A stretch of DNA of 64,000 bases, from the NCBI GenBank assembly GCA_964016885.1, contig CAXHJY010000860.1:248001-312000 (forward strand). The letters are read 5' to 3'. Source of the stretch: Eledone cirrhosa. Taxonomy: Eukaryota. Position numbers and translations under genes: made by a program. The first letter of the stretch is position 1. Each line of letters begins with the position of its first letter. The notes below the pieces were generated by a model. That model was not told the origin of the DNA and did no database searches. It saw nothing but the letters and a program-made list of their open reading frames with translations. Of this stretch, positions 4,171 through 57,466 are shown in pieces.

Positions 4171-4208
4171 GTCTTAACGTTTCGGACGCTAGTCCTTCAT
4201 CAGAAGAA
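4171..4208 (-). ncRNA. Minimal hammerhead ribozyme in a PLE-like remnant
   Basis: Reverse complement TCTT-CTGATGA-A-GGAC tagc GTCC-GAAA-CG-TT-AAGA. Same family as 39286-39322. Confidence 0.75.
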
Positions 4209-4394
4209 AGAATGAGAAATAAGTTAGATTGAGGGGACGGGCGGGTTGGAATTGGAAAAAAATGTCTTTAGATATAAGAAAAACAGGTCCATTTATGTTG
4301 ACATCTATATATATTAATACAATTATGTTACACACACACACACACACACACACACACACACACACACACACACACATATATATATATATATATA

Positions 4395-4528
4395 TTTCGT
4401 TTCTGAATTTGTTTAGCAAGATTCTTTATCTGAAATCGTGTGTTGAAACCGATATTGTTATACTTTGGGAGGGTCATGTTGCGTGTGTTTCTTATTGGCA
4501 ACATGACCCTCCCAAAGTATAACAATAT
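4395..4528. mobile_element. Short fold-back PLE-like remnant (family B) inserted in (TA)n
   Basis: Perfect inverted arms at 4452-4482 and 4498-4528. Shares sequence with 28905-29410. Confidence 0.7.
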
Positions 4529-5004
4529 ATATATATATATATATATATATATATATGTATATAATTGAATAAACAAGAGAGATGAACACCAATATAAACA
4601 TACATGTGTTCGAATCGTAAGGACCAAAATTTGGTAGGGTGAAAAAATACTAACTACAGCAATATAGTTTGTTATCCTTAACTTAATTGTAAGAGATTAC
4701 CCTCAGTTCTTAACTCAATGTATGTATATATATATATATATATATATATATATATATATATATATATATATATATATATTCCGTGGCTACTTAGTACTTA
4801 CAGGATTATCTATATCATTTATCTGAAATCTCCTTAATGTTGAGAAAAAAATGTTGTATCATGCTGCTATTTCTAGTAACATGAAATATCAACTAGTCTA
4901 TTATTTCCGCTCTTTCTAACGGCCCGTTTGTGTGGTGGTCATTTTAACGGCTTGATTCATTCACCGGGCAGAAAGCGTTACATCCACATCTACGTGGATT
5001 TATA

Positions 5005-5108
5005 TCTAGTAGGTTTGGAAAAGCTATCTGAAGAGCTATATCTTTCCATTGGAAATTCTCTGAATTTCCAATCTTTTGATCAGCGAAACCGTCGGTCATG
5101 GCACTAGA
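5005..5108 (+). ncRNA. Type I hammerhead ribozyme with extended helix II
   Basis: Helix I GCTAT/ATGGC extended by TCTAGT/ACTAGA, CTGAAGA 5028-5034, helix II GCT/AGC with an internal 11-bp hairpin, GAAA 5085-5088, helix III ACC/GGT, GTC cleavage triplet. Confidence 0.8.
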
Positions 5109-5196
5109 ACAGGTAAATATTTAGATCGTATTTTAATTTATTTAAAAGATTGTTTAATGTCTACTTGTTCCGGTCATATATATATACACATATATA

Positions 5197-5806
5197 CATG
5201 GTGGCTGCTATCTCGTTTTCGAGTACGGCCATTACTTTATATCCATGTAGGAGAACCACTACCGATGCGCTGAACGAGTGTGACATTTTAGTCCAGCCAG
5301 CGACTTGAAAACTCTGGTACAACCACTACACTTGTGACAATTATTGACACATAGTGCTGGGCCCATGGTACCATGTGACGACAAGTGCAGAGAGATCTCC
5401 AGATATAAAGCAATGCCTGTGCCGTGAAGCTTTTATAGTGAGCAAAGGCACTGCACAAAGCCAGTCCCACTCTCTTAACCAAGATGATATTTACCAAAAA
5501 GAAGAACAAGTCAACATCATTGGATACCATCAGGGTTGCAGGTATTATATCAGAGTTTTCCTTCTCCTAGAATTCTGCCTTGTCAAAGGCTAAGGGGTCA
5601 TCTCTCCCACTGATTTTGGATGGCCATTGACGCTTAAGAGCTCCTTTGCCCTTTGACAGGTTTTGTTTTTAGTCCTGCAGGATGTCCAAAGTCACCCTCC
5701 TAACTAAGAAACCTTGGTGGGGTTGCCAGTTTAGTCGCCAACGACCCGACCATGAGACAGGTTGTACTGGAATACATGTTACCAGTAGCACCAACTGGTG
5801 ACCTGA
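5197..5806 (-). mobile_element. Non-autonomous RTE-related short element
   Basis: Near-identical to 39543-39957, 54413-54930 and 57866-58260. The 3' part carries a zinc-finger-like CxxC...HxxxxH remnant resembling RTE ORF ends. Confidence 0.7.
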
Positions 5807-6109
5807 CATACATACATACATACATACATATATAATATATATATATAAATATATATATATATATATATATATATGAGAAAAGAACAGACGTGCCTATTCT
5901 GACGGGCGTCCGTTAAACTAGATTACAGACGAGACATGAAGAAACTGACGGCCATACTTAATAACGAAAACTTGGATTTCCTTTGATATCTGTCATATAC
6001 TTGGACATGCCGTCTCAGATCTGATGGCGGACCATCGGACATTGTTTGTTTGGTCGTGTCTAAGATGATTTACAGTATCTTCAGATGCAACACAGCATCT
6101 CTTGTAAGA

Positions 6110-55792: not shown

Positions 55793-56434
55793 TTATATAT
55801 ATATATATATATATATATATATATATATATATATATATATATATATATATATATATACATATATATATATTCAGCGAGATCGCATTTCGGTGGTTAGAAA
55901 AAGCGAATCGCAACACAAATACCGAGTCCAGCTGGCAAGCGCACCATGGGCTAAAAAGACCAGAGAAATAAACATAGGTTATGAAGGCCATACAAACTGA
56001 GAAGGCGGTCAAGAAGCCATATATATATATATATATATATATATATATATATATATATATATATATATATATATGTATATATATTCATATAAATATGTAT
56101 ATATATGTGTGTGTGCGTGCGTGTGTGTGTGTGTGTGTGTGTGTGTGTGTGTTCGCAATCTATCATATAATTATATATATGTATTTAAGTTTATGTGCGT
56201 ATATATACACAGTATATGATTGCCAGATAAATTAACTATGGAGATATAAAAGATACAGAAGCGAAAACCAACCAAACGGTGAGTGTGTTCTGTTATTATT
56301 TCTAGCAATATTATTACACACCAGGTGGACCATAACGCACCAGAGTACTCAATACTTAAGTTAGTAGAGTGGGTAATAGGAAAAGAGTTAGGACCCCAAC
56401 GGCTGAGATCGGGCCGTTTCGACAGCTAGATCCG

Positions 56435-56532
56435 AACCCCTTGATAATTTCAGCTAGATTCCCGCCGTCCCCTTACTGCTCGCTTAGTTCGGATCTTGCT
56501 GTCGAAATGGCCGGAGCTCAGCCGTCGGGGTC
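56435..56532 (+). ncRNA. Full-length but mutated hammerhead of family A
   Basis: ACCCC-TTGATAA (from CTGATGA)-..CAGCTAGATT...GGATCTTGCTG-TC-GAAA-TGGCC ggagctc AGCCG-TC-GGGGT. Confidence 0.6.
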
Positions 56533-56832
56533 CTGACTCTTTTCATCTATATATATTTCCTCACTTTCTGTTGCCTCACCATTTTGTTTGTTTACCCTCG
56601 CGTCCCCTTTATTTACGTGTCCCAACGACTTTTTTTAGCCGTTGCTCGCACCAACCGGAGGTATATGGTCTTTAAAGCGATGAAATGCCTATGATGGTTG
56701 GAAGATCACTGATGAAGGACAAACTTTTTTCATATGTAACCCATTTGCAACTCCGCAGCGCCCTTATTATCATATATATATATATATATATATATATATA
56801 TATATCTGCCGATATTACCTCTTATTGTTTTG

Positions 56833-56880
56833 ATTGCCCTGATGAGTCCCTAATAGGACGAAACATTGTCGTCTAATAAA
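56833..56880 (+). ncRNA. Minimal hammerhead ribozyme with degenerate helix I
   Basis: CTGATGA 56839-56845, GTCC ctaata GGAC, GAAA-C att G-TC, then AATAAA. Confidence 0.7.
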
Positions 56881-57020
56881 AACTTTTGATGTATTAAAGG
56901 ATTCTTTGTTTTACTCTCTTAATATATATATATATATATATATATATATATATATATATATATATATATATATATATATATATATATATATATATATATA
57001 TATATATACATATATATAAA

Positions 57021-57120
57021 TAACAGATTAAAGCTTAGGCAAAGTATCGCTGCCTTCACCCTTAACGGGGTCTTGTTAAGGGTGAAAGCAACGATTCTTT
57101 GCTTAAACTTTAATCTGTTA
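57021..57120. repeat. 100-bp imperfect fold-back next to (TA)n
   Basis: TAACAGATTAAAG...CTTTAATCTGTTA with inner arms TTCACCCTTAAC/GTTAAGGGTGAA. Confidence 0.7.
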
Positions 57121-57399
57121 AATTAGTAAATATTTGCTCTAGGGTTCTTATATATTTGATATATATTTATCGTTATCGAGCCCTCTTTGGATTTTAGTCT
57201 CCACATATATATATATGTATATATGTATACATTGAACATATATATATATATGTGTGTGTGTGTGTGTGTGTGTAAATTTATATATATATTTACATACATA
57301 TATATATAGATATATATATATCTATATATATATGTTACTGCCATGACTGAATTTTAACCATCAACATAGTCAGGGTATGTCAAACATCAAACATCATCT

Positions 57400-57466
57400 T
57401 ATTTTATCTGATGAGGACGTACTGTTGTCATTAGCTCAGTACCTCTGAAATATGTATAATAAAATA
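57400..57466 (+). ncRNA. Hammerhead ribozyme (35955 family)
   Basis: Same helices and core as 35955-36021. The differences lie in the distal loop of helix II. Confidence 0.8.

Follow-up and report, generated by a model that had tools for sequence, protein, structure and literature searches.

Why do some 20 hammerhead ribozyme motifs from several unrelated families lie scattered through 64 kb of cephalopod DNA, and what, if anything, do they do there? The window that raises this question (the whole 64,000-nt stretch analyzed here) belongs to an unplaced 650-kb contig of the 2.996-Gb Eledone cirrhosa assembly. It has 35% GC, is masked as simple repeat over 54% of its length, and contains 338 (TA)6+ tracts. 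A first-pass annotation, made from the letters alone, had listed 22 hammerhead coordinates and attributed them to Penelope-like elements (PLEs). In the current study, we explain the motifs as remnants left by several PLE clades, elements of a known kind that are present here at an unusually high load. We further consider it probable that the short copies, or stubs, are hammerhead-bearing pseudo-long terminal repeat (pLTR) run-off copies of many PLE families in (TA)n, and that their solo ribozymes are likely inactive.

Judged on their sequence, the listed motifs are confirmed as real hammerhead elements. They were called with a type I descriptor comprising the core, three helices, and an NUH site. 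The first version, which capped the lengths of helices II and III and admitted only a CTGANGA core, failed the motifs listed at 29596 and 56435. The descriptor was widened twice, after families had been seen, with the controls repeated at each widening, and the matches in the window rose from 16 to 19 (longer helix III) and then to 21 (long helix II and the U3-A8 core). Against the 19, 96 of 100 island shuffles contained none (mean, 0.05), so the comparison with shuffled sequence that had been proposed as a check came out far in favor of the motifs; the reversed window likewise gave 0 type I matches. All 22 listed coordinates have a hammerhead core within 0 to 65 nt, 15 satisfying the descriptor and 7 being decayed copies. 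Thirteen pass with canonical cores (4203-, 5028+, 17017-, 29165-, 30111-, 30306+, 35963+, 36634-, 39290+, 45399+, 45702-, 45708+, and 57408+). The widened descriptor also passes 29604+, whose helix II is 85 nt, and 56441+, which has a U3-A8 core (TTGATAA in place of CTGANGA) and is rejected by a stricter U3-A8 filter because its helix II begins TT. Left off the list were the five hammerheads of a 467-bp array (see below), those at 12000, 12943, and 53186 (decayed), two SGC-like motifs, and 22 arms of what we call family A, among which the first half of the core is reached only at 56441. A loose TTGANAA scan gave 78 rows, many of them AT-rich false matches, and was filtered afterwards. Rfam was unsuited to these variants; the best 150 of its 767 matches were nearly all microRNA models on microsatellites, plus five HH9 matches, all on the 467-bp array (37.7 bits; gathering score, 52).

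The helices also covary. In the largest group, the TA-helix-III superfamily (20 copies), two-sided changes were seen at 12 of 14 pairs; 0 of 500 shuffles scored as high and all slid controls were lower, a comparison that counts as support and not as a probability, related sequences being able to outscore shuffles. Helix I of family F6 reads AGATTC/GAATCT in some copies and GCTTC/GAAGC in others. Genome-wide, the exact pattern of one superfamily occurs 25,508 + 25,128 = 50,636 times, versus 0 in the reversed control.

The copies sit where the first-pass annotation had placed them, in islands between (TA)n tracts: (TA)5+ lies on both sides within 400 nt at 19 of the 22 listed sites, and within 300 nt downstream of 37 of the 39 measurable matches sampled from the genome (versus 21% of random positions). 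AATAAA follows at 12 of the 22, as had also been claimed, overlapping the 3' strand of helix I in several families; no poly(A) tail was seen in the copies read.

Coding parents are found elsewhere in the genome, where a search for GIY-YIG gave 10,596 candidates, 150 of which were scored. Two loci have the complete structure pLTR-ORF-pLTR (ORF, open reading frame). One, L098, encodes a 938-amino-acid frame with reverse transcriptase (RT) and GIY-YIG domains (Pfam) between pLTRs at 2279-2806 and 7258-7784, and its pLTR matches 11829-12322 of the window; the other, L028, has hammerheads at 662 and 5892. In both, each repeat carries a U3-A8 hammerhead, and a CTGANGA-only scan would call at least two complete PLE families ribozyme-free. 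This core variant is common, occurring at 12000 (-) and 56441 (+) in the window and also in L028, L098, L017, L114, and L093.

Four of the families of short copies are linked to PLE ORFs. F7 lies 215 to 417 nt behind RT/GIY-YIG matches at four loci, with no TA break (motifs and blastx). For the F8-type region, running from the endonuclease end to the hammerhead, 57 matches were obtained, 21 of which, at other places, cover it almost entirely; all 10 F8 loci checked had Hydra-type ORF matches and 8 had the hammerhead, with the linker CxCX5C in all three loci read. F12 is linked to a PLE endonuclease in five copies, and F2 at one locus, its parent having a CxxC linker and a GIY-YIG domain. For F6 the link is suggestive: 40 copies match 582 nt of a long parent whose upstream part dissolves into simple repeats, and one of eight loci runs from a Hydra-type ORF into this parent, the bridging piece being shared by a second locus. 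A direct link was not obtained for F1, F3, F4, F5, F9, F10, F11, F13, or family A; apparent links of F3, F5, F5b, F6 (L107 and L113), F8 (L108), and F13 were dropped because TA tracts intervene. The proposed extension of the families to ORFs, and with it the PLE origin, therefore holds for seven listed sites (F2, F7, and F8) and probably for the four F6 sites, but not directly for the other 11. Clade names (Neptune/Nematis-type and Hydra) were assigned from linker motifs. The homologues of one PLE protein have RT and GIY-YIG domains, the named ones coming mostly from bivalves or their gill-symbiont assemblies. A young Hydra-type family at C4:320.0-320.9 Mb and C2:219.15 Mb (L148-L163), with open frames of up to 877 to 892 amino acids and tandem copies, is likely still active.

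In all, at least 9,657 of the 29,729 nonsimple bases of the window (32%) belong to PLE families, which also occupy at least 38 of 89 islands of 60 to 500 bp. The suggestion that the apparently unique DNA between microsatellites is PLE debris thus stands for at least 1/3 of the nonsimple DNA, as the families were counted, but not for most of it; much of the remainder looks like debris of short and long interspersed nuclear elements (SINEs and LINEs). Chance motifs, or miniature inverted-repeat transposable elements (MITEs) of DNA transposons, have in our view next to no claim on these sites. Many islands are indeed inverted repeats within TA-rich DNA. However, the shuffled and reversed controls and the covariation speak against chance, and no transposase or family with symmetric terminal inverted repeats was encountered. 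The inverted repeats consist of two copies placed head-to-head; their ends differ (one has a tail), their parents have PLE ORFs, and they do not qualify as MITEs.

How heavy is this load genome-wide? Fifty 10-kb stretches taken at round coordinates on 27 large contigs (499.8 kb) contained 57 hammerhead matches; reversing the same sequence left 2 matches, and three shuffled versions had 0. With stratification for contig size, the sample scales up to about 3.3 × 10^5 hammerheads (bootstrap, 2.3 to 4.4 × 10^5), or one per 9 kb, and the very high ribozyme load predicted from the window is upheld. The sample is well calibrated, because it contained 8 exact-pattern matches where 8.4 were expected. 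By the same descriptor the window (21 in 64 kb) is above the genome average, in line with its TA density. Published counts are 9,000 for Xenopus tropicalis, 4,000 for coelacanth, and about 2,000 plus 1,300 minimal hammerheads for Schistosoma mansoni (PMC4209133), and about 5,000 for mussel and up to 120,000 for axolotl (PMC7229834). The last, from an animal whose assembly is listed at 28 Gb, is the highest that we found in print. Dispersed PLE hammerheads being already known, the novelty lies in scale (about 3 × 10^5 versus 120,000), not in kind.

The ends of the copies suggest how they were made. Many insertions are head-to-head, one arm ending near and the other some 55 to 80 nt further on, and families have two 3' ends (about +60 and +120 to +125 in F6, +190 and +245 in F7, and +70 and +130 in F12). 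In several families the 5' ends pile up as well. Of the 52 F6 alignments, 38 begin in the interval from -8 to +6 relative to the core and none begins further upstream, while 40 long copies reach at least 450 nt upstream; the F6 parent has TATAAATA at -36. Short copies of the L101 family have their 5' limit at -42 at most, with TATAAAAG at -75, and 14 of 29 F10 ends fall at -67/-66. From TATA box to 5' limit is 30 nt in F6 and 33 nt in L101. At cleavage sites no pile-up of 5' ends was found (14 alignments within 12 nt, scattered), which fits an uncleaved template.

These features recall what a PLE protein does in vitro (PMC11167929). In that system both strands of AT-rich DNA are nicked and then extended, copying of an uncleaved RNA template begins at two internal positions behind the hammerhead, and templates shortened at their 5' end yield shorter products. 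Having two 3' ends in each family fits such two-site internal priming combined with two-strand cleavage. We propose that the element enzyme would nick both strands of a (TA)n target and, within the first pLTR copy of the transcript, would prime at two internal positions close behind the hammerhead. The RT would then run off the 5' end of the uncleaved RNA, much like strong-stop DNA, and the products would be left as short head-to-head copies, likely inactive as solo ribozymes. On this proposal the pile-ups would mark transcription starts, the template RNA would be uncleaved, and most genome copies likely ran off the start of the element RNA.

A second account keeps the PLE origin and holds that these are ordinary 5'-truncated copies whose ends were set by RT stalling at hammerhead helices. 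We regard this as possible, if somewhat doubtful. The pile-ups of F6 and F12 coincide with the 5' strand of helix I, where an RT stop at structure is conceivable; only about 4 of 164 family A arms reach the core, which resembles stalling in a long helix II; and the 5' ends of F7, F4, and a CTAG family are spread, with no pile-up. Against stalling, the 5' limits of F10 (-67), L101 (-42), F5 (-53), and F2 (-63) lie a good way upstream of helix I, and TATA boxes precede the limit in F6 and L101 at the spacings given above. The stalling-like ends also weigh against our run-off proposal, and so do other points: the TATA box is missing in four of six parents checked (the Drosophila virilis promoter is likewise TATA-less [PMC2377424]), both arms of one insertion were counted separately in the tally of 5' and 3' ends, half of the listed sites (11 of 22) are without a direct ORF link, and Pfam recognized only three of seven PLE proteins, the rest resting on blastx and motifs. 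Were run-off copying nonetheless correct, both ends of the stubs would record, genome-wide, the transcription start and RT priming sites of each PLE family. Should the pile-ups indeed be transcription starts, the stubs, in their tens of thousands, would map the start and end of PLE insertion in vivo, for which one in vitro system has so far been the sole basis, and would indicate that the hammerhead usually leaves its template uncut.

Do the dispersed hammerheads cut? Of 50 sampled matches, 29 have a perfectly palindromic helix III and 13 a nearly palindromic one; by itself this short helix forms a hairpin in just 2 of the 12 families (A and F6). Hammerheads with palindromic helix III reportedly need dimers and cleave poorly (PMC4209133; PMC6765202), and head-to-head partners cannot pair in one transcript because they lie on opposite strands. 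Solo copies thus presumably do not cut, a palindromic helix III needing a second copy, and most hammerheads in this genome are likely silent as cutters. At one hammerhead per 9 kb, the genome is a strong natural test of the cost of ribozymes to their host.

The first-pass annotation had raised the prospect that, were the window an intron, sense-strand copies could cut pre-mRNA, and had proposed strand bias inside introns as a check. We therefore compared strands across 11 spans of genes encoding spectrin and immunoglobulin repeats (591 kb; strand taken from domain matches). Sense copies number 16 there and antisense copies 10 (P = 0.33; sense share, 0.41 to 0.80), with no sense depletion. The matches cluster in few genes, 12 of the first 24 lying in one. 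Within the window and its neighboring 90 kb (154 kb in all), no credible host exon was found among 40 non-repeat ORFs (of 232). A candidate DEG/ENaC exon 30 kb to the right of the window (L056:253-519) is a weak Pfam match with no match on the contig, and is probably a chance one. Pre-mRNA cutting by the hammerheads of the window is therefore unsupported, in a comparison of low power. A general effect, in which the scattered ribozymes would cleave host pre-mRNA at a rate that has consequences, seems to us improbable. In its favor, the density in gene spans is lower (26 in 591 kb versus 57 in the 500-kb random sample), families A and F6 have a self-folding helix III, and at the observed spacing long introns would contain same-family partners. 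However, the deficit affects both strands, much of the gene-span count comes from one gene, in published work PLE hammerheads cut inefficiently or need a protein to cut (PMC4209133; PMC11167929), and the intronic status of the window lacks support.

At the left edge of the window lies an element of another sort, a tandem array of a 467-bp unit. The array is head-to-head, with TA at both outer ends; the two positions within the unit at which it terminates are separated by about 70 nt. Each unit has one type I hammerhead (cores at 205-, 704, 1171, 1638, and 2105) with a GUU site and palindromic helix III, and its longest ORF is 30 amino acids. The circular monomer folds at -149.9 kcal/mol, compared with -92.8 ± 6.0 for 40 shuffles (z, -9.6). 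Among the best 150 of 184 genome matches, the full-length ones are mostly 97 to 100% identical; arrays reach about 15 units and are often head-to-head (39 of 72 candidates scored). The family also occurs at C6:82.99 Mb, C3:91.21 Mb, and C10:47.40 Mb. An upstream block containing ATGCAAAT is common to this family and two hammerhead families (L108 and L116 references); we take the ATGCAAAT octamer to recall the snRNA-type promoter of newt satellite 2. Six sequencing runs contain the unit, none recorded as RNA. A near-identical unit (window, 578-1511) appears in four runs with four organism codes from four studies, the kind of run being unspecified; for a stretch of a spectrin gene, the four runs covering the unit produced no long piece, and they carry no information on expression or on the organism sequenced.

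The array is likely a young nonautonomous retrozyme of the non-LTR type (LTR, long terminal repeat), moved by the same PLE enzymes, and its tandem units would permit dimer cleavage and circles. Could all the stubs be of this nature, that is, independent SINE- or retrozyme-like mini-elements copied from short self-cleaved or circular RNAs? Their very high copy numbers and fixed ends would suit such an origin, as would the 467-bp unit itself, being noncoding, tandem, nearly uniform across chromosomes, and strongly folded as a circle. We nevertheless think it unlikely. F2, F6, F7, F8, and F12 have longer parents, the cleavage site shows no accumulation of 5' ends, and a solo stub, having one ribozyme, cannot be excised as a unit; the explanation fits the 467-bp array only.

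Family F13 departs from the type I pattern. A type-SGC descriptor matched the window at 28454- and 56709+, and gave 0 matches in the random genome sample and 0 in controls. The F13 blocks run in the order cleavage site, GAAA, CUGANGA. Across 12 copies, pairing holds in 96% of the cells of helices I and III and an additional helix, with eight two-sided changes (0 of 500 shuffles); in helix I such changes occur at three of seven pairs, and those in helix III are one-sided only. Helix II is not a plain Watson-Crick stem, only its first pair (A-U or G-U) being standard by eye. If F13 is a type-SGC hammerhead, it would bring a rearranged ribozyme form, one that has reportedly been connected with Naiad elements, to animal genomes. 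The most far-reaching combination, in which the largest reported ribozyme load and run-off ends are joined by an active animal SGC hammerhead and by families A and F6 cutting host transcripts, we would put forward only tentatively; on the present sequences it is more doubtful than not.

Hammerhead-bearing and related features of the window (positions are those of the window)
Position	Strand	Feature	Details
1..2435	both	Array of 467-bp unit	Four + units at 578-2435; inverted units to the left, continuing past base 1
4171..4208	-	Type I hammerhead, minimal, F2	Descriptor
5023..5102	+	Type I hammerhead, F3	Descriptor; long helix II, GUC site
11829..12322	-	Solo pLTR of the L098 full PLE	U3-A8 hammerhead at 11966-12005
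12938..13020	+	Type I hammerhead, F4	Descriptor; not on first-pass list
13510..13548 (core 13515)	+	Decayed hammerhead, F5	Helix II partly deleted
16890..17093		F6 head-to-head insertion	Intact hammerhead 16974-17022 (-); rearranged copy 17027 (+), helix I lost at inversion junction
28437..28515	-	Type-SGC-like permuted hammerhead, F13	SGC descriptor
29126..29170	-	Type I hammerhead, F7	Parent with RT + GIY-YIG motifs
29599..29712	+	Type I hammerhead	85-nt helix II; inside long inverted repeat
30058..30359		F8 head-to-head pair	Hydra-type PLE parent; hammerheads 30058-30116 (-), 30301-30359 (+)
30623..30667 (core 30628)	+	Decayed F7 copy	Core G5 mutated
35958..36018	+	Type I hammerhead, F9	Descriptor, covariation set
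36575..36639	-	Type I hammerhead, F10	Descriptor, covariation set
36951..37167		Family A example, head-to-head stub	GAAA half of large type I hammerhead; ~80-nt tail at one end
17280, 38830, 40182, 44379, 44668, 45794, 46245, 52179, 52277, 52721, 53098, 53359, 55577		Further family A stubs	
37375..37434 (core 37380)	+	Decayed hammerhead, F5-related	Helix I 3/5 pairs
38003..38057 (core 38052)	-	F8 copy	Helix III mismatch
38660..38703 (core 38698)	-	Decayed F7-related hammerhead	Helix I 3/5 pairs
39285..39322	+	Type I hammerhead, minimal, F2	Descriptor
45394..45453	+	Type I hammerhead, F5	Descriptor
45575..45767		F6 head-to-head insertion	Hammerheads 45659-45707 (-), 45703-45751 (+); GUA site, 4-bp helix III
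53181..53219 (core 53186)	+	Decayed F12 hammerhead	Parent a Hydra-type PLE
56436..56531	+	Full family A hammerhead	U3-A8 core, long helix II, 5-bp helix III, GUC site
56648..56726	+	Type-SGC-like permuted hammerhead, F13	SGC descriptor
56834..56875 (core 56839)	+	Decayed hammerhead, F11	Helix I 3/5 pairs
57403..57463	+	Type I hammerhead, F9	Descriptor

Family A is the commonest insertion in the window (22 arms, with 18 in the 500-kb genome sample); its arms nearly always lack the first half of the hammerhead core, and a parent ORF was not found among the loci searched. Other remnants accompany these features. At 57023-57200 lies a head-to-head remnant with the GAAA half of another hammerhead family, whose sequence recurs in L012, where a Hydra-type ORF precedes it by about 950 nt, and in L043, where the core reads TTGAGAA; its assignment as the tail of the L101 family was rejected, the sequence matching a separate element located downstream in L097. 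Long inverted repeats also lie between TA tracts at 37656-37909 (with no passing hammerhead), 4456-4524, and 29435-29750. Non-LTR RT fragments, RTE-like by eye, are present at 2846-3715 (-) and 27835-28470 (-), the second with an 81-bp tandem duplication, and LINE-like fragments at 20520-22745, 24902-26970, and 62477-63490, one piece being amplified as a 173-bp tandem array of 12 copies. Two abundant families resembling SINEs or LINE tails are without hammerheads, the first at 13290-13840, 17104-17259, 36211-36402, and 58738-58912 and the second at 5200-5807, 39543-39957, 54417-55373, and 57848-58258. The first is oriented 21 versus 46 in the gene spans, a strand bias absent from the hammerheads. 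A SINE-like repeat resembles the octopus SINEs.

How does this compare with known systems? Our literature search, outside which most subscription papers and supplements lay, returned no report of hammerheads in cephalopod genomes, of SGC hammerheads in animals, or of PLE strong-stop stubs; in the O. vulgaris repeat paper the word "ribozyme" occurs 0 times. The hammerheads of PMC4209133 share with ours the type I topology, the palindromic helix III, the U3-A8 core variant, and, in some families, an extra base between A9 and helix II. There, too, each genome has many consensus families, mostly solo or in opposite-strand pairs 100 to 700 bp apart, with few hammerheads inside full PLEs. The differences are the load of about 3 × 10^5, the several families here with a long helix II or stable helix III, and the fixed 5' ends, these last not being described in the accessible part of that report. 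The endonuclease-positive PLEs of Craig et al. (2021; PMC8557442), Neptune/Nematis-type (CX2-5CxxC) and Hydra (CxCX5C), likewise have an RT followed by a C-terminal GIY-YIG domain, pLTRs with a hammerhead, an inverted truncated copy, a tail at one end, and (TA)n targeting, but their tails are 30 to 40 nt, compared with about 55 to 80 nt here.

Metazoan non-LTR retrozymes (PMC7229834; bioRxiv 10.64898/2026.07.22.740005) and the 467-bp unit are both tandem and noncoding, with one type I hammerhead per unit, a GC content below 50%, and PLE-type ends. Unlike the former, the 467-bp arrays are often head-to-head with two PLE-type ends. Type-SGC HRIMA-1 and its variants (Eckert et al. 2023; PMC10085705) have the block order, helices I and III, and extra helix of F13, whose helix II, not being plain Watson-Crick, differs from theirs; those ribozymes come from metatranscriptome-type data, and "animal" occurs 0 times in the main text of that report. 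For the insertions themselves a close counterpart is Poseidon of Anolis carolinensis, studied in vitro by Frangieh et al. (2024; PMC11167929), with its two internal RT starts, both strands nicked and extended at AT-rich DNA, an uncleaved main template, and a template 5' end that sets product length. Genomic stubs with a 5' pile-up at the transcription start are not described in the accessible part of that paper, and it is in these that the Eledone copies would extend the Poseidon scheme.

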